Origin: an uncultured virus (IMG/VR IMGVR_UViG_3300032293_002550) | Lineage: Duplodnaviria > Heunggongvirae > Uroviricota > Caudoviricetes | Virus record (IMG/VR): IMGVR_UViG_3300032293_002550 | Length of the DNA: 64,000 nucleotides | Reading direction: 5' to 3' (one strand) | Part shown: positions 36,685 through 63,271 of the stretch, one piece after another | Layout of the letters: every line of letters begins with the position of its first letter | How positions within the stretch are numbered: the first letter of the stretch is position 1 | The notes under the pieces: model-generated | The model's database searches: none | Seen by the model: only the letters and a program-made list of their open reading frames with translations | Told to the model about the DNA's origin: nothing | Translations under genes and position numbers: made by a program

Positions 36685-36714
36685 AATAAAAAAGGGTCTC
36701 CGAAGAGACCCTTT
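36685..36714 (-). terminator. Intrinsic terminator of the major capsid gene with a cUUCGg tetraloop
   Basis: Minus strand AAAGGGTCTC-TTCG-GAGACCCTTT-TTTATTT. Confidence 0.9.
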
Positions 36715-55938: not shown

Positions 55939-57579
55939 CTAAGCTGTCTCCTCTCCTCCTTCAGCAGGGGCTTCGGTTTCAGGAGTGGCCGCTGGTGCCT
56001 CTTCCTCTGCTCCTCCTTCTGGAGCTTCAGCAGGAGCCGATTCAACCTTCTCTGTTTGCTTATATTTTTTGTTAGCCATTATGTCTTCATATGAAAGACC
56101 CGACCATCTTTCAATTAAGAAGTCTTGGTCAAAATATTGTACCTCCTCTTCATTGACGGTTTCTTTGATTTCACCCAATGAATTAATAAAATCTATGTGC
56201 TTGAGTAGTTGCTCAATTTCTCTAGATTCACCAAACGTGTTGTCGCTTTCATATTTGATTCCTATTTGGCTTCTAAACTCTGAATCATTTTTTAAATTGG
56301 GAAAGTCCAAACACATCTGGATCCAAAGTGGCTTCACCATGATCTCTTGGAAAATAGATCTTAAACGAGTTATGAATTTGGCAAAACGCACTTCATCCCT
56401 TTCAGAACCATCGGCTGGTATTTTATAAGCTGCTGCAGAACCAGATCCCCATCTTGCTGAGAATCTATTATAGGGAATTTTAGAATCCATTCTGAGTTTA
56501 TTATAGAAATAAACTACAGAATCCATTATGTTGAGATTGGGACCTTGTGCATTGATCGTCTCTACCTTGGTTGATTCTCCCCCAGCTTGTGGAAAAAGAT
56601 AGTTCTTATAGAATTGCAAATCTGGTCTACCATTAATAGCAAGTTCTCCAGAACTTGTGTCTAGCTTAATATCTTCTTTATAAGCAGACATTAGCTCTCC
56701 CAATGTTTCCTTTGCCTTTTGTGGAGACTTGCTCCCTATTGGAACAGTCATCTTAATTCTATATTGGGAGTTCATCACATTCCAAATGATTCTAGAATGC
56801 TCCATGATTTTCAACAAGTTGTAAGATCGAACTAGTCTTTCACAATAAGATGTTCTAGCAACCGTGTTTGATTTAGCATAAGAAATGTAAATCAATTGAG
56901 CATCCAACAATTTTCTTTGTCTAGTTGTCTCTCCATAATACTGCCACCAGACACTCTCTCTGGTACCATCAGGTTTCTTTTCAACCGCAGGGGTCAAACT
57001 TGTTGCATCCAATTCTTTGAATCCAACTATATCCTTTCCATCACTAGAATATATGATTTCAAATGCCAGAAATCCTTCTACCAGAAGTTGTCTAAAGTAT
57101 TGCCAAGCTGTTAATCCGTTGGTGAAGTTGTGTAGGACGTAGAGCTTTCTGAAATTCTTTCTTAGAGCTTTCATGACCTCATCCTTCAAATCCATGTTCA
57201 TGGTTGCGGGATGACAAAAGAAGTTTTTCTCGTCATAAACTATCCCCTCGTCACAAAGAGTATCTAGAATGTATTCTATCTCGGAGTTGAGCGCAAAAGT
57301 TCTTAGAAAGTCCCTTCTTACAGGGTAGTCCTTATCAAAATAGGCAATGTATTTTCTGTTAGATGAATCTTGCGCTGCAATACTATAAATGAAATCCTCA
57401 TCATCTTGAGCGTATCCGAATCGTTCTCTCATGTTGGCTTCAGAAATACCGATTGCCATCGAATCCTGAATCACCATGTCCTTGTATTCCATTCCAAAGG
57501 ATCCCAATCCACTGATCGTTTTAATGATTCTTGAAACGTTGGGGTTGATTTTCCCTAAATTATCTATAAATCCTGCCAT
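55939..57579 (-). CDS. Portal vertex protein (gp20-like), copy 2
   Basis: EIEYILDTLCDE, SYCERL, LKIMEHSRIIW, YFYNKL, RDEVRFAKFITRLRSIF; acidic Ala/Pro/Glu tail. Confidence 0.88.
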   Translation of the reverse strand: MAGFIDNLGKINPNVSRIIKTISGLGSFGMEYKDMVIQDSMAIGISEANMRERFGYAQDDEDFIYSIAAQDSSNRKYIAYFDKDYPVRRDFLRTFALNSEIEYILDTLCDEGIVYDEKNFFCHPATMNMDLKDEVMKALRKNFRKLYVLHNFTNGLTAWQYFRQLLVEGFLAFEIIYSSDGKDIVGFKELDATSLTPAVEKKPDGTRESVWWQYYGETTRQRKLLDAQLIYISYAKSNTVARTSYCERLVRSYNLLKIMEHSRIIWNVMNSQYRIKMTVPIGSKSPQKAKETLGELMSAYKEDIKLDTSSGELAINGRPDLQFYKNYLFPQAGGESTKVETINAQGPNLNIMDSVVYFYNKLRMDSKIPYNRFSARWGSGSAAAYKIPADGSERDEVRFAKFITRLRSIFQEIMVKPLWIQMCLDFPNLKNDSEFRSQIGIKYESDNTFGESREIEQLLKHIDFINSLGEIKETVNEEEVQYFDQDFLIERWSGLSYEDIMANKKYKQTEKVESAPAEAPEGGAEEEAPAATPETEAPAEGGEETA

Positions 57580-57582
57580 CTT

Positions 57583-59172
57583 TTAAATTGTAAATTCTCC
57601 CTCTTTTTCACCGCCTTCTTTCTTTTCTCCCTCTCCTGATTTTTCCTTTTTCTTTTTGGCTTCTTCTTTGAATTTCTCGTTGTCGAGCATATCTTGGTTA
57701 GACATCCCTAACCATCTATCTAGGGCAAATTTCAAATTGAAATATGACTTGCCTTCTGAATCTTTCAAGCCTAGTATTTTGATGACCTGGTCTTTTCTTG
57801 CTGTCATTACCTCCATCTCTTTGGCCTCCTTGAACATGTTCTCTTTAACGTAATCTAATCCAAACTCCGATTTGATTAGATAGTCATTTTTCATTTGTGG
57901 AAAGTCCAAACAAAATTGGACCCAAAGGGGCTTCATCAGAATCTCTTGGTAGATAGAGCGAAGACGATTTATAAACTTACCAAATCTTATTTCCTCCTGG
58001 TCTAGACCATCAGCAGAGAATGTGATAGTTCCCTCTGATCCAGAATCATCCCTACCGAACCTACTGGCAGGAACTTTAGAATCGATCCGAAGTTTGTTGG
58101 CAAAATATTGCAGAGCCTTCGTGTCAGAAAAAGCAGTTGCGTCTCCTGCTCCAGTCAATGGCTGAATATCAGGTGTACCATTCGGTGAGGATGGCATGAG
58201 ATAGTTCTTGAAAAATTGAATCTTAGGACGTCCATCAACAGTCAATTCACCACTATCAGTGTTGAGTCTTATGTCCTCCTTGTAAATGCTCATCAATTCA
58301 CCAAGCGTTTGTTTGGCTTTCTGTGGGGATTTGGTCCCAATAGGAACTGTCATCGCCATCCTGAATGAGGAATTCATCACGTTCCAAATTATTCTGGTGT
58401 GCTCCATAATCCTCAATAAGTTAAATGACCTAATAAGCCTCTCAACATAACTAATTCTAGCAGCGGTTCCTCCACCCTTTGCATAACTTATGTAGATAAT
58501 TTGGGAGTCATAAAGTTTTCTTGTGAGTGACGGATTATCTGGGTATTGAATCCAAATGTCAACATAAGAACCATCTGGTTGCTGCTCAACTGTGGGAACT
58601 AATGAAGCAGCATCGATCTCCTTGAATCCTATGATGTTTTTTCCTTTCTTGTCAAATATGATTTCGAATGATAGATTTCCCTCGACCAGAAATTTTCTGA
58701 AGAGGTGCCAAGCAAGAATGTCTTGGTTAAACCCAAACAAATTATAGATTTCCTTATATCTTTTTTGAACCTTAGAAGAAACATCTTCATCCACATCATC
58801 ATGTTGCATGAAAGAAAAATAAGCCCAAAAGTTTTTCTCGTCGTAAACTATCGATTCGTCACAAATTGTATCAAGAATGAATTCAATCTCTGGGTTTTGT
58901 GCAAAACCCTGTACATAGTGTCTTTTGTTCTTAAAATCTTTATCAAAATAAGCTATGTATTGCTTTGTTGTTGTATCAGATCTTTTTAAACCAAATAGAA
59001 AAGCCTCATCTTTGATCCCTCCTTTTTTGAGAAACTGTGCTTCAGTGACCCCAACGGCTTGTGAATTTTTGACAACGAGATCTCCATAGGCCATTCCAAA
59101 ACTGCCTACTTTCCTAATGTTTTCGATTATTGTATCAAAAAATGTTTTCTTTCCGTCAGTAAATCCAGCCAT
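57583..59172 (-). CDS. Portal vertex protein (gp20-like), copy 1
   Basis: PEIEFILDTICDE, SYVERL, LRIMEHTRIIW, KVPASRF, EEIRFGKFINRLRSIY. Confidence 0.88.
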   Translation of the reverse strand: MAGFTDGKKTFFDTIIENIRKVGSFGMAYGDLVVKNSQAVGVTEAQFLKKGGIKDEAFLFGLKRSDTTTKQYIAYFDKDFKNKRHYVQGFAQNPEIEFILDTICDESIVYDEKNFWAYFSFMQHDDVDEDVSSKVQKRYKEIYNLFGFNQDILAWHLFRKFLVEGNLSFEIIFDKKGKNIIGFKEIDAASLVPTVEQQPDGSYVDIWIQYPDNPSLTRKLYDSQIIYISYAKGGGTAARISYVERLIRSFNLLRIMEHTRIIWNVMNSSFRMAMTVPIGTKSPQKAKQTLGELMSIYKEDIRLNTDSGELTVDGRPKIQFFKNYLMPSSPNGTPDIQPLTGAGDATAFSDTKALQYFANKLRIDSKVPASRFGRDDSGSEGTITFSADGLDQEEIRFGKFINRLRSIYQEILMKPLWVQFCLDFPQMKNDYLIKSEFGLDYVKENMFKEAKEMEVMTARKDQVIKILGLKDSEGKSYFNLKFALDRWLGMSNQDMLDNEKFKEEAKKKKEKSGEGEKKEGGEKEGEFTI

Positions 59173-59765: not shown

Positions 59766-60262
59766 CGCATTATGAACTTCTCGTTAATAGCTCCAAATTT
59801 ATATCCTCTTGACTCAGCGAATCTTGTTGCAGCTTCAAACTTAGCACGATTAGTTATCCAGATTTGAAGCTTTTGGTTGTATGCTCTAACTTTCTTTTCT
59901 GTAAGATTGCCTACAGGTTCCTTTGGTCTCTTGTTAATATCATATTGGTTTTCCGGCTTTATTTCAATCAACCAATCTTCAATTGTTCCATCAAGTTTTT
60001 TGACCTGTATGTAATAGTCAACGAAATAAGTGTGCTCCTTCTTGTCAATTGGTGACCAATATTTTATTCCAGAAAGTGGCTCAGAAGACCATTTAACGAT
60101 GTTGGGATTTGTATCACAATATTGGCAAAACTTCCTTTCCCAAGAACTTCTATAGATTATATTGTTGATGTCTCCAATATACTTAGAGGGATTTAAAGGA
60201 GCATACAATCCTTGTTTGTATTTGGAATTTTTTGTGGGCCTTAAATTCTTGATGTTCTTCAT
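59762..60262 (-). CDS. Head completion nuclease (gp4-like, TnsA-type)
   Basis: PSKYIGD, IYRSSWERKF, WSSE, YFVDY, LIEIKP, NRAKFEAA. Confidence 0.9.
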   Translation of the reverse strand: MKNIKNLRPTKNSKYKQGLYAPLNPSKYIGDINNIIYRSSWERKFCQYCDTNPNIVKWSSEPLSGIKYWSPIDKKEHTYFVDYYIQVKKLDGTIEDWLIEIKPENQYDINKRPKEPVGNLTEKKVRAYNQKLQIWITNRAKFEAATRFAESRGYKFGAINEKFIMR

Positions 60263-60296
60263 AGAGGTGTGGCCTTTCTAAAATTGCCAAAAGCAA

Positions 60297-60653
60297 TCAA
60301 ATATTATAATTTGTGTTTTCTTCTTTCACGATTCTTGAAAATGGGATAGTCTTGATGGACTTAGGTGGATGAATTTTTTTCCACCCTTTTTTCATTCCAT
60401 TATGAGCTATTTGGGAGATGAATGCGAATGGATTGTCAGACTTCTCTGGATCATATCGATTCCAATACTTTATGAGATCCTCAAGACCAGACGAGATACA
60501 ATCTTCACGATCTTCTGTGTCTCGATATGAATGTGTCTTGCTCATTCCATTGACAATAAGAGTGAACATCTTAATTGTTTCTGAGGTTAGTTCACCTTGT
60601 TCTTTGCTTTCTAATAAAGCTCTTTTGAGTTCTTTGTTTTTAACGTAGATCAT
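60297..60653 (-). CDS. Late-transcription sigma factor (gp55-like), short
   Basis: YVKNKEL, REDCIS, YDPEKSDNPFAFISQI. Confidence 0.75.
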   Translation of the reverse strand: MIYVKNKELKRALLESKEQGELTSETIKMFTLIVNGMSKTHSYRDTEDREDCISSGLEDLIKYWNRYDPEKSDNPFAFISQIAHNGMKKGWKKIHPPKSIKTIPFSRIVKEENTNYNI

Positions 60654-60865
60654 TGTTCGATAGGGAGATTTTTTTGGAACTTTTCGATTTGATTTTCTAA
60701 GCTTGTCTTCAATTTTTCCAAATTTTCCCTAGAACCCTTAATTACCTCTATCCCTATTCTACCATTTTCTAAACTGGAAGTTTCCAATTCAGTTAGTTTA
60801 TCCAAACATGTCTTTAAATCATCCAAAACAAAACTGAGTCTATTTCCTAATCCCTCTTCGGGCAA
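60650..60865 (-). CDS. Coiled-coil ORF, probably the -1 frameshift extension of 60895-63213
   Basis: Only a TTG start, which lies at the end of a stem. The frame is open back to 60910 across the A9G run. Its TGA overlaps the gp55-like ATG (ATGA). Confidence 0.6.
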   Translation of the reverse strand: MPEEGLGNRLSFVLDDLKTCLDKLTELETSSLENGRIGIEVIKGSRENLEKLKTSLENQIEKFQKNLPIEQ

Positions 60866-60907
60866 GGAAACAGACTCAGATACTAAACTCGATCTTACTT
60901 TTTTTTT
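60834..60907 (-). promoter_or_regulatory. Candidate frameshift signal: A-AAA-AAG (in an A9G run) plus a downstream 15-bp stem-loop
   Basis: mRNA ACA AAA AAA AAG UAA; stem arms at 60879-60865 and 60848-60834 (one G-U pair), followed by UUUUGUUUU. Confidence 0.6.
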
Positions 60908-63213
60908 GTTTTAGGAGCAGAAGAAAGAGTAGCTCTTTTTTCGTCTTCCATAAACTTCTTGTTGTTCCTTTTGTGATTTCCTGGCGCTTCTGCCAAATTA
61001 GCATCTGTTTCTTTTTCAATAAACTTCTTTGGCTTTGGCATCTTGGCTTTAGGAGCTTTCTCAATGTGTGAGTTCTTCTGGCTTTCTTTTAAAGCCAAGT
61101 TGTGACCTTTTAAATCTTCGATAAATTTAGATGCACTTTTAATGACTGACGAAGGTGCCTTTGCAAGATTGGAATTGTTTAGATCCTGTGCAAAGTTTTT
61201 GCCTTTACCACTTTTACCACCTGGAGCTGAAGCTAGGTTTTGTTTTTTCGTTTTAGCTGAACCAGTCACTGGAGAATTTTTAGCTTCACCTTTAACACTG
61301 GCCATGTTAGCATTTTTTGGATCGTTGATGAATTTAGGGCTAGACTTTGTTTGTTTCGAAGGAGCAGCTGCCATATTCTTACGAGCTTGTCCCATCAAAG
61401 CACCATCTTTTTTTGTCCCTCTTGTTGGAGCAGGTGCAGTAGAGAATCCTTGGTTCATAGCCTCATTAGCCTCACCACTAAATTCTAGACTCATGTCGGG
61501 AGTTTGGATGTCGTAGTTATCTACCTCATCAACTAAATCCTCAACATCAGAGAAGAAATATTCTCCGGTTTTACCTTCCTTAAATAAAACAGTATATGTT
61601 TTAGAACTACCATCTACACCTACGATTTTACCCTTATTACCGTTTCTTTTGATTCTAACCTCTGTATCAATAGGATATCCCATTTCTTCGTTAACAGAAA
61701 TTTCATTTGCTGAACTTTCGAATCTTTTGATCCCAACATTAATTTGGTTCCATTTATCCTTTAGAATCTGAAGTTCATTTTCTAGGGACTCTTCTAGATT
61801 TAATAATTGTGTGGAATTTGCGATCAAAGGATTTTCTGATTTTACTTTCGTGATCTTGATCAGTTCTGCCTCAAGAAGTTCAATGTTTTTAACAATCTCT
61901 TTCTTATCATTTTTCATGACACTTAAGAAAGCTTGTTCCCCTTGTAAGAACTCTGTTAGAGACTCAGAAATGTCATATTTCATGAACTCTTTGATGATAT
62001 TGATGGCCTGGGTTGCGTTTGACTCGTAAATCTTGTTCAAGCGCATCGCAGGATTTACTGTTTGCACGTAAATTCTGTTTTCATACTTGAAAATGTTTGC
62101 TTCCACACCTTCGTATAATTTTGATTTGATCTTCTTACCAAAATCGATATCTACAATTTCATCGGCCGTTTGTGCAATGAAAGCAGCTTTAGCCGCTTTA
62201 TAATTAGAGTTCTCTAAAAGGTTGTTTGTGGTCACACTAATAGCAGCTGGAAGATCTGCTTCATGAATGTGTTTGCCATCTAAGTAAATTCTCTTTTGTT
62301 CATTTTCGAAAACAATGTCAACTTTACTTTTACCAACATTCAAAGAAATTCTGTCACCATCAATTCTAACCTCTCTATCTACAACGACAAGAGCCTTGTT
62401 TTGAAAATCTGCTGGAACATCTTCAGCTGAACACTCATTGATAGTTTTAGATGCATCGTCAATTGCTAAAAATTTCCCACTGGAAAAGAAAATGGATCCA
62501 CTTTCTGTAACCATTATTGGGGAATAAATATTAGTTACGTGACAAATGTTATTATCAACACCAAGATTGAACTTGTTTGGATTGCTGTTTTCGTGGAGTG
62601 AAAGGAAGCTAACGAGGTTTCTAACCAAAGGATTGAATCCAAATCTTTTTAATCCGTGAATCAATGTATCAGAAACATGATTTTCTGAAATTAACCAATT
62701 CTTCATTTGAGAAGTTGCATCAGAAAACAAATCTTTTCCCGGAGCTGCCTTAATTGATTCGTAAACTTTAACAACTTCAATTTCCCTTCTTCTATTGGCA
62801 AATATTTGGTTCAAATTTTCCACCACAGAAACAACTGAGGTCTCCCAAGAAAATGACTTGAGATCGTTCAAAAAAGATTCAAATACAAAAGCTTCTGAAA
62901 TTCCGTTATGAAGAATCAAGGACTCATATTTGTCAAGTAATATTTTTCCCGCAGGCAATTCGTTAAGAGTAGAATTACGCAAAGCTGAGATGGTATTAAC
63001 TAATCCAAAACTGAAGACCGTATTGTTTGATTTTGGAAAATATTCGTTGTTTGCAGACTCTTTCAACATTTGGGCGGTTGACCCATTAAGAAAAGAAGAT
63101 GCAACAGGTGATTTAGAAACATCCAAACCCCCCCAAGACTTCATTGATTCAGCAACACTTTTTGAAGTCTCCATGTTTAATCTGTCGATCTCTGGATTAT
63201 TATTTTTTTCCAT
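60895..63213 (-). CDS. Large putative prohead/virion protein with a coiled coil and a basic repetitive C-terminus
   Basis: 772 aa; GATATATA at 63232-63239; several (L/V)xE sites; C-terminal NLAxAP...KF repeats. Confidence 0.65.
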   Translation of the reverse strand: MEKNNNPEIDRLNMETSKSVAESMKSWGGLDVSKSPVASSFLNGSTAQMLKESANNEYFPKSNNTVFSFGLVNTISALRNSTLNELPAGKILLDKYESLILHNGISEAFVFESFLNDLKSFSWETSVVSVVENLNQIFANRRREIEVVKVYESIKAAPGKDLFSDATSQMKNWLISENHVSDTLIHGLKRFGFNPLVRNLVSFLSLHENSNPNKFNLGVDNNICHVTNIYSPIMVTESGSIFFSSGKFLAIDDASKTINECSAEDVPADFQNKALVVVDREVRIDGDRISLNVGKSKVDIVFENEQKRIYLDGKHIHEADLPAAISVTTNNLLENSNYKAAKAAFIAQTADEIVDIDFGKKIKSKLYEGVEANIFKYENRIYVQTVNPAMRLNKIYESNATQAINIIKEFMKYDISESLTEFLQGEQAFLSVMKNDKKEIVKNIELLEAELIKITKVKSENPLIANSTQLLNLEESLENELQILKDKWNQINVGIKRFESSANEISVNEEMGYPIDTEVRIKRNGNKGKIVGVDGSSKTYTVLFKEGKTGEYFFSDVEDLVDEVDNYDIQTPDMSLEFSGEANEAMNQGFSTAPAPTRGTKKDGALMGQARKNMAAAPSKQTKSSPKFINDPKNANMASVKGEAKNSPVTGSAKTKKQNLASAPGGKSGKGKNFAQDLNNSNLAKAPSSVIKSASKFIEDLKGHNLALKESQKNSHIEKAPKAKMPKPKKFIEKETDANLAEAPGNHKRNNKKFMEDEKRATLSSAPKTKKK

Positions 63214-63271
63214 CTTGATTCTTTTTTTTAGTATATATCCATTCTATTCCTAGATTTCTATGAAATGAAGA

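Follow-up and report, generated by a model that had tools for sequence, protein, structure and literature searches.

Introduction

Both programmed frameshifting and transcriptional slippage are familiar phenomena, known among phages mostly from tail chaperone and capsid genes. Here we describe a site of probable programmed -1 recoding in a 64-kb stretch of phage DNA from an uncultured virus (64,000 nucleotides (nt), IMG/VR record IMGVR_UViG_3300032293_002550; hereafter the window), in which all feature coordinates refer to the minus strand. A run of nine A's (A9) lies at the very end of an open reading frame (ORF) of 772 amino acids (aa), the big ORF. A second ORF, without a start of its own, occupies the -1 frame (the small ORF or -1 ORF) and reaches from the run to a gene for a gp55-like late sigma factor. 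The locus is unusual in several respects: a deeply conserved site made of A9 and a stop closes a large late gene in an uncultured lake-phage clade, the added domain is encoded across a covarying hairpin that looks like an intrinsic terminator, and the shifted frame finishes precisely at the start codon of the gene for the late sigma factor. A literature search, with subscription journals outside its scope, yielded no report of a frameshift adjoining a gp55-type gene.

The T7 capsid proteins 10A and 10B provide an example of a phage structural frameshift of the same layout. The lambda G/GT tail chaperone (named in PMC5009743) also resembles the present locus, being a late gene in which a -1 shift close to the end places a C-terminal domain on a minor fraction of the product. 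Both differ from it in the proteins concerned and in the slip motif, and neither has an embedded terminator or a link to a transcription-factor gene.

By analogy, the nearest precedent is Shigella spa13/spa32. As described in the relevant part of PMC5009743, transcriptional slippage in Shigella flexneri spa13 leads to 25-30% of an extended product, which at its end runs into spa32 and has an effect on the expression of that gene. As in spa13/spa32 and mxiE (same part of PMC5009743), a homopolymer run within a gene would here give rise to a minority product extended at its C-terminus from another frame and, as in spa13/spa32, this extension overlaps at its end with the start of the next gene. 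Unlike in spa13/spa32, the run stands at the extreme 3' end of a 772-aa phage gene, with a single base between it and the stop, a terminator-like hairpin lies within the extension frame, the downstream gene codes for a late sigma factor, and the arrangement is known from sequence alone.

The dnaX gene uses the same slippery class and also has two isoforms with a common N-terminus, made there in a set ratio. According to the passage on dnaX in PMC5009743, E. coli employs -1 programmed ribosomal frameshifting (PRF) on A_AAA_AAG with a Shine-Dalgarno (SD) sequence and a stem-loop, and Thermus thermophilus relies on transcriptional slippage on an A-run. The shift yields a shorter product in dnaX and would yield a longer one here, and the two stimulators of E. 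coli dnaX, the SD 5' of the site and the stem 5-6 nt 3' of it, are absent here.

The last comparison concerns the hairpin and the repression by ribosomes of Rho-independent terminators located near or within coding sequence. In an engineered E. coli construct, Li et al. (2015) moved a stop codon from 28 to 5 bp before tR2 by a 1-nt insertion, and termination dropped from about 90% to less than 10%; an estimated 10-15 nt of free RNA were necessary for the terminator hairpin to fold (PMC4824070, in the section on this construct). Similarly, the stop at the present locus, at least 15 nt before the hairpin, would leave the terminator free, and a frame reading into the hairpin should repress it. 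In contrast to the engineered construct, the arrangement here occurs naturally, has been conserved and goes together with a slip site, and termination and its repression are predicted.

Slip site and overlapping frames

The features of the junction are the following:

60895..63213 (minus strand), zero-frame ORF of 772 aa, from ORF translation
60899..60907 (minus strand), A9 run and putative slip site, from the sequence, followed by a G at 60898
60895..60897 (minus strand), zero-frame stop TAA, one base past the A9 run, from the sequence
60650..60910 (minus strand), open stretch of the -1 frame, 86 codons and a TGA, from translation
60834..60879 (minus strand), hairpin with a 15-bp stem and a small inner stem-loop, from folding and covariation
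60825..60833 (minus strand), U-tract TTTTGTTTT right after the stem, from the sequence and synonymous conservation
60297..60653 (minus strand), gene of a gp55-like late sigma factor of 118 aa, from PHROG 234 and Pfam Sigma70_r2

The 3' end of the 772-aa ORF reads CCT AAA ACA AAA AAA AAG TAA. The A9 run holds the heptamer A_AAA_AAA and, with the G at 60898, the heptamer A_AAA_AAG, both in the zero frame, so that the X_XXY_YYZ heptamer of a canonical bacterial -1 PRF cassette is present. Upstream, a TAA at 60913..60911 closes the -1 frame, which from there reads NKKK and then 82 codons beginning VRSSLVSESVSLPEEGLGNRL, up to the TGA at 60652..60650, which overlaps the gp55-like ATG (60653..60651) as ATGA. 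A shift on the run is predicted to append these 82 codons (VRSS...PIEQ) to the big protein and to produce a protein of 854 aa, for which trans-frame peptides containing the junction ...KKK/VR... or SSLVSESVSLPEEGLGNR would be expected.

The earliest ATG, GTG or TTG within the -1 frame is the TTG at 60865..60863, composed of the last base of the 5' arm of the stem and two more. No other A or T run of at least 9 exists in the 64 kb, and the contigs from four independent lake-water DNA runs that span A9 showed no gap and no difference; since they agree across the run, A9 is not an artefact. An original prediction, drawn from the letters of the window, had placed the A9G run before the stop, the frame closed and then open in -1, and the TGA overlapping the sigma gene at these very positions, and had correctly described the TTG as the sole start, at the end of a 15-bp stem 18 nt past the slip site. 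The layout and its conservation indicate that the arrangement at the A9 site is more than chance.

Conservation of the A9 run among relatives

Relatives were collected from three sources:

IMG/VR scan with the big protein as query, 9 loci
IMG/VR scan with the small-ORF alignment as query, 14 loci
Metagenome scan, 34 loci

The small-ORF motif was present in the window and in 54 of the 57 loci, the exceptions being L002, L008 and L009. Two loci (L020 and L021) end before the junction, and 39 distinct junction sequences were left once identical ones had been removed.

The run was exactly A9 in 38 of these 39 junctions, which came from lake and other metagenomes. The base after the run was a G in 36 and a C in three (the L003 group, L050 and L052, belonging to two clades). 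A stop followed directly after the run and this one base in all 39, as TAA in 35 and TAG in four. The heptamer A_AAA_AAA was found in 38 of the 39 relatives, A_AAA_AAG in 35 and A_AAA_AAC in three, and the small ORF was in the -1 frame as counted from the big ORF in each of the 38 A9 junctions. The original prediction had proposed to look for the slip site, the stop and covariation of the stem in relatives, and these were recovered in 38 of 39, in 39 of 39 and with a score of 0.425 against at most 0.096 (see below), respectively.

The coding content of the run does not account for this constancy. In seven ORFs of the phage, Lys is encoded by AAA 175 times and by AAG 100 times, so that the three conserved AAA triplets are not due to codon bias; at other places of the big ORF, Lys-Lys pairs frequently read AAG AAG. 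The synonymous third base before the first Lys codon of the run is always an A (ACA, TCA, GCA and, once, AGA). This invariant A, together with the Lys codon usage, argues for selection on the nucleotides of the whole run. The run itself seems selected, because all nine A's are kept and three sequences have a C after A9. Over the 206,767 nt of the 39 related loci there is no other A or T run of at least 9, except an A13 at one contig end.

The -1 ORF: coding signal and absence of an own start

The substitution pattern was analysed in 37 sequences, L040 being excluded because of its frame and L045 because of truncation. The entropy of the -1 ORF at codon positions 1, 2 and 3 was 0.77, 0.41 and 0.93, the second position varying least, and the ratio of nonsynonymous to synonymous changes (pN/pS) downstream of the hairpin was 0.30-0.58 in 11 pairs. 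The frame remains open over 82-86 codons in an AT-rich genome, down to about 37% amino-acid identity. By these signals the -1 ORF encodes a protein. It has, as in a -1 PRF cassette, the form of a conserved overlapping ORF devoid of its own start: the start at the TTG of the window is not conserved in relatives, and 12 of the 39 junctions show no ATG, GTG or TTG from the run to the LETSS motif.

The linker between the run and the hairpin comprises 7-10 codons, its lengths are 21, 24, 27 or 30 nt, in steps of 3, and its pN/pS is about 1. Nevertheless, 33 of 33 distinct linkers have an open -1 frame. In a set of 11 diverged representatives (10 of which were informative, as the window-type linker had been mis-cut to 8 nt), stops were present in none in the -1 frame vs 9 of 11 in the +1 frame (shuffle P ~0.0009). 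A linker that evolves freely yet is always open implies that translation enters the -1 frame at the run and not downstream.

At its other end, the -1 ORF is closely connected with the gp55-like gene. One of the 39 loci is cut before this second junction, and the remaining 38 are distributed as follows:

Stop of the -1 ORF and gp55 ATG overlapping by 4 nt (ATGA), 26 of 38 junctions
Stop of the -1 ORF and gp55 ATG overlapping by 1 nt (TGATG or TAATG), 7 of 38 junctions
Stop of the -1 ORF 5-21 nt upstream of the gp55 ATG, 5 of 38 junctions

A profile of the extension searched against 1.84 billion representative proteins gave only seven matches, all of 45-74 aa. By their length, these proteins are gene-caller products from internal starts; gene callers now annotate the extension as orphans of this size, beginning at arbitrary internal codons.

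Hairpin and U-tract inside the -1 ORF

The stem pairs positions 60879..60865 with 60848..60834 and begins 18 nt past the G of AAG. The hairpin folds with -28.3 kcal/mol (z = -5.8 vs 200 shuffles) and is followed by UUUUGUUUU; in relatives, the energies of the stem range from -17.6 to -31.5 kcal/mol. In the alignment of 39 sequences, 93% of the cells of the stem are paired vs 30-41% in slid controls. Changes on both sides were observed in 7 of the 14 stem pairs, with a covariation score of 0.425 vs at most 0.096 in slid controls. In clade A the stem is GAGTCTRTT...AAYAGACTC, encoding ESV and NRL, and in clade B it is GAGTTCGTT...CGAACTC (core GAGTTC...GAACTC), encoding EFV and [S/N/D]EL. The amino acids differ on both arms between the clades and the pairing is preserved; the alignment thus indicates that the stem is kept by compensatory change. 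The Phe codon of the U-tract has a third-position entropy of 0, with the consensus TTT, in the 37 sequences. In some relatives the stem is lengthened where the A-rich linker forms A-U pairs with the U-tract.

Among the hairpins followed by a U-tract on the coding strand of the 64 kb, this one is the strongest, and it has what defines an intrinsic terminator, a stable GC-containing stem-loop with a U-tract immediately after it. The stem core starts 15-24 nt past the stop (18-27 nt past the heptamer), in steps of 3. Such a spacing is ill-suited to a -1 PRF stimulator and suits a terminator standing just clear of a terminating ribosome.

The comparison with the outgroup, a sister clade (L058-L060), is decisive here. 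The big protein is 41% identical there and ends ...KVKKGK or ...KIKRSK; A9 and the small ORF are both absent. The spacer before gp55 consists of about 190 nt of non-coding sequence with two classic terminators and a third hairpin (L058:6045-6290, L059 and L060). As the outgroup has terminators without a slip site, the terminator is the older element and the extension frame was laid over it. The hairpin and the U-tract together probably constitute an intrinsic terminator or attenuator of the big gene.

Other structures were noted in the vicinity. Many clade-A sequences contain a possible second hairpin of 9-10 bp, TAGACGATTT...AGATTGTCTA, right after the U-tract (60790..60830 in the window), and the U-tract is also able to pair with an A-rich stretch downstream. 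RNAalifold gave no consensus structure for the second hairpin across all 39 sequences, and no Rfam family reached threshold in 60200-61300. A second canonical terminator of the window (36685..36711, minus strand; GGGTCTC TTCG GAGACCC, then T-rich) is situated directly past the major head protein gene, before the next ATATATA.

Probable programmed recoding and alternative explanations

The conservation of the run, the stop, the frame relation, the open linker and the coding-type substitutions argues for a recoding site that connects the 772-aa ORF with the -1 ORF, itself devoid of a start. The probable explanation is therefore a programmed -1 shift on A9, where a gene transcribed late comes to its end, giving isoforms of 772 and 854 aa.

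Several observations weigh against this explanation. The first is L040, a 1217-nt contig with a run of A11 (L040:842-852), which breaks the simple -1 relation. It is 96.6% identical to L041, and A11 in place of A9 is the sole indel between them. An assembly error is one possible cause and natural length variation another, in which case a one-base deletion, not an insertion, would be needed to fuse the frames. The efficiency of the shift could be low, because E. coli RNA polymerase slips weakly on such A runs, to follow the data on A runs in PMC6260861. The surroundings of the run do not resemble a classical PRF site: no structure lies 5-9 nt after the heptamer, and a search of the 12 nt before the run for a conserved SD-like or purine-rich 5' element gave none. 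A simple terminator scan did not flag the hairpin, the loop of which exceeds the 8-nt limit of the scan. No in-frame fused relative (of A10 type) was recovered with the extension profile among the 1.84 billion representatives; a search for longer proteins with the extension domain also gave nothing, which is weak evidence. Lastly, an in-frame ATG occurs about 18 codons past the run in 3 of the 39 relatives (L045, L049 and L054), and roughly two thirds of the relatives have some TTG further inside the -1 ORF, which leaves room for independent low-level initiation. Relatives with an independent ATG, named in the original prediction as an argument against recoding, are thus found in these three; their sisters lack the ATG, and all three retain A9.

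An alternative is ribosomal -1 frameshifting on A_AAA_AAG stimulated by the hairpin, the downstream stem-loop blocking the ribosome in the manner of dnaX or IS3-type cassettes. In its favour, the heptamer has the correct frame, the run is followed by a G in 36 of 39 junctions, a strong conserved hairpin is present downstream, and the stop adjacent in 39 of 39 corresponds to the "shifty stop" geometry reportedly described by Weiss et al. in 1987. Known -1 PRF stimulators, however, sit 5-9 nt from the slip site, and the distance from the heptamer to the stem core is 18 nt in the window and ranges over 18-27 nt, in steps of 3, among the relatives. The U-tract conserved after the stem is not needed by a stimulator, the outgroup has terminators at this place without the slip site, and the lack of an SD-like 5' element is also unfavourable. 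In addition, A9 followed by C occurs in two separate clades, and nine conserved A's exceed the need of one heptamer. Stimulation by the hairpin is consequently unlikely. The recoding site of the original prediction is supported by the conserved run, the stop, the open linker and the coding signal, and the role of stimulator that it gave to the hairpin is not supported, as the stem core lies 15-24 nt past the stop. Its own reservation about a spacer longer than the usual 5-9 nt was well founded. The terminator-like appearance of the stem, which it had also pointed out, agrees with the U-tract, the covariation and the outgroup terminators at the same place.

The small ORF could also be a separate gene, translated from an internal or non-canonical start (TTG, ATT, ATA) or by re-initiation past the stop of the big ORF, A9 being kept only as Lys codons of the big protein. 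Consistent with this are the in-frame TTG at 60865 in the window, the ATG of the three relatives and the TTG that precedes the LETSS motif in about two thirds, the proteins of 45-74 aa annotated by gene callers, and the distant L008 and L009, in which a separate small gene with its own ATG stands between the big gene and gp55. The start nevertheless has no conserved position, ATG, GTG and TTG are all missing ahead of the conserved domain in 12 of 39 junctions, and the TTG of the window is buried in the -28 kcal/mol stem without an A-rich leader. Also unfavourable to a separate gene are the freely evolving linker, which stays open in all sequences with length changes in multiples of 3 nt, and the constancy of the run length, of the synonymous A ahead of it and of the stop beside it. 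Moreover, the small gene of L008 and L009 has no evident similarity to the extension (compared by eye, unaligned). We consider this explanation quite unlikely.

The possibility that the -1 ORF is unexpressed, the region being a 3' untranslated region with a terminator followed by the gp55 leader, and the open frame and the A-run being by-products, is very unlikely. The outgroup does manage with a non-coding spacer of similar length, but the coding-type substitutions in 37 sequences, a frame open over 82-86 codons in an AT-rich genome to about 37% amino-acid identity, and the confident prediction of a helix-turn-helix structure all speak against it. Finally, a homopolymer sequencing or assembly error hiding one continuous ORF, for which only the differing run of L040 (A11) could be quoted and which the original prediction had raised itself, is effectively refuted by A9 without indel in the contigs of four independent runs, by A9 in 38 of 39 distinct assemblies from many samples and by the absence of a fused-length protein among the 120 listed of 152 homologues of the big protein.

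Proposed mechanism of the shift and of a possible feedback

Under programmed -1 recoding at A9, the majority of expression would stop at the TAA and give the 772-aa protein. A minority would shift to the -1 frame on A9 and gain 82 residues, a linker and a helix-turn-helix, giving the 854-aa isoform. This could occur by slippage of RNA polymerase on A9, resulting in an mRNA with A10, or by slippage of the ribosome on A_AAA_AAA or A_AAA_AAG beside the stop. Here the ribosomal and the transcriptional shift are inseparable, because sequence alone cannot tell them apart. We lean slightly towards polymerase slippage, and possibly both contribute. The nine conserved A's, the variants with C after A9 and the lack of stimulators favour the polymerase, and the A11 variant fits it better. 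The run has what is expected of a site of transcriptional slippage, a length of at least 8-9 that is conserved beyond the coding need (38 of 39). With E. coli RNA polymerase, slippage is undetectable on runs of fewer than 8 A's, according to the data on A runs in PMC6260861, and A9 is just above the length where this enzyme begins slipping. For slippage of the ribosome speak the predominance of A_AAA_AAG and the invariably adjacent stop.

Translation in the -1 frame, and this translation alone, would cross the terminator and end on the gp55-like ATG (ATGA). The shifted fraction would thus be positioned to oppose termination and to hand ribosomes to the sigma gene. A terminator melted by ribosomes and feeding the sigma gene, as had been suggested in the original prediction, may exist here, since it is plausible on physical grounds and fits both the geometry and the E. 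coli experiment (construct described in PMC4824070). It is possible, though on balance doubtful, that the slip site and the terminator form one recoding-gated attenuator exerting a positive feedback on late transcription. In this model, the gp55-like sigma factor would drive the big gene from an GATATATA-type promoter (see below). Ribosomes halting at the TAA would leave at least 15 nt of free RNA, the terminator would fold, and transcription would end before gp55. Translation of the hairpin by the shifted fraction, arising on A10 mRNA or by ribosomal slippage, would suppress termination and bring ribosomes to the gp55 ATG. If this is true, the frequency of slippage on A9 sets how much late sigma factor, gp4 and gp2 each round of late transcription yields. 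A functional link would make the locus a natural case of a recoding event that sets the transcriptional read-through into a master regulator.

The distribution of promoter signals bears on this model. None of the 39 relatives has an ATATATA motif between the run and the gp55 ATG, which fits read-through as a main late route into the gp55, gp4 and gp2 genes. A hidden promoter signal was sought between the run and gp55 in the 37 sequences as an unusual stretch of synonymous conservation, and none was seen; a sigma-70 scan gave no promoter-like site within the small ORF.

The gp55-like gene, genome context and candidate late promoter

The gp55-like nature of the downstream gene, as initially proposed, is borne out by matches to PHROG 234 (E 1.8e-16) and to Pfam PF04542 (Sigma70_r2; 28.9 bits vs a cut-off of 24). 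The C-terminal part of T4 gp55 binds the sliding clamp. The match of the 118-aa protein covers profile positions 25-130 of 181, and the protein may lack this clamp-binding part.

Downstream of the big ORF the gene order is gp55-like, gp4-like head completion, gp2-like DNA end protector, two portal paralogues and DNA ligase; the head protease, the major head protein and the tail fibre are encoded still further along. The portal genes, at 57583..59172 and at 55939..57579 on the minus strand, are tandem T4-type (gp20) paralogues that share 49% identity across 515 aa, and the presence of two portal genes within one phage is unusual. An ATATATA motif lies 26 nt upstream of the ATG of the first. The nearest named relatives of the portal are uncultured huge phages and Prevotella Lak phages, with 32-42% identity.

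A promoter-like motif was found upstream of the big ORF and of other genes:

63231..63240 (minus strand), promoter-like motif GGATATATAC, 25 nt upstream of the ATG of the 772-aa ORF
63238, 59198, 51517, 40617, 36663 and 34543 (minus strand), examples of [GA]GATATATA[ACG] sites

The motif [GA]GATATATA[ACG] occurs 15 times on the coding strand vs 5 times on the other strand, mostly 11-26 nt ahead of ORF starts, among them those of the 772-aa ORF and of the genes for the tail fibre, the head protease and the portal. Every relative examined, the outgroup included, has a conserved motif of the GATATATA type ahead of the big ORF. By analogy with the T4 word TATAAATA, we infer that it is the late promoter of this phage group. 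The T4 late-promoter word TATAAATA itself was not enriched in the window (3 found vs 3.4 expected). An SD-like motif was present before 2 of the 65 ORFs of at least 120 aa in the window, and the leaders are A-rich. Together with the relatives of the portal, these features hint at an SD-independent host, such as a member of the Bacteroidota.

The 772-aa protein and its extension

Pfam and PHROGs contained no family for the 772-aa protein or for the extension. The big protein has 152 homologues, and the 120 listed are nameless or "hypothetical". The AlphaFold2 (AF2) model of the 772-aa protein, with a mean predicted local distance difference test (pLDDT) score of 65.7, suggests an N-terminal domain of helices followed by a beta-rich domain, a helical hairpin (426-501), a small Tudor/SH3-like barrel and a disordered Lys-rich tail of about 210 aa with repeats of the type KF[IV]ED...NLAxAP. 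The repeat tail was observed at 60895..61500 (minus strand; residues about 590-772), the number of repeats varying by clade, and the length of the big protein ranges from about 750 to 849 aa across clades. Homologues of 843-849 aa were considered as fused forms and rejected, as their extra length consists of longer repeat regions and not of the extension.

A PDB sequence search with a 21-sequence profile yielded nothing below E 0.1. Foldseek with the 772-aa model gave generic matches of low template modelling (TM) score and Tudor-like matches at residues about 515-560; in a wide VIA search only the helical hairpin (424-504) was matched, in a generic manner. The ESM Atlas provided no usable lead for the big protein or the extension. 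The AF2 model of the extension (pLDDT 74) predicts a disordered linker followed by a helix-turn-helix formed by helices 21-49 and 54-80, in agreement with the coiled-coil tail initially proposed.

L008 (L008:3503-6006) and L009 (L009:3575-6147) belong to huge-phage contigs, one of 344,746 nt, in which the order of the big-protein homologue, the small gene and the gp55-like gene is kept. They were tried as in-frame fusions of the extension and rejected (BLASTP E 2.0 and 9.3). Compared by eye, their small gene resembles the barrel domain of the 772-aa protein.

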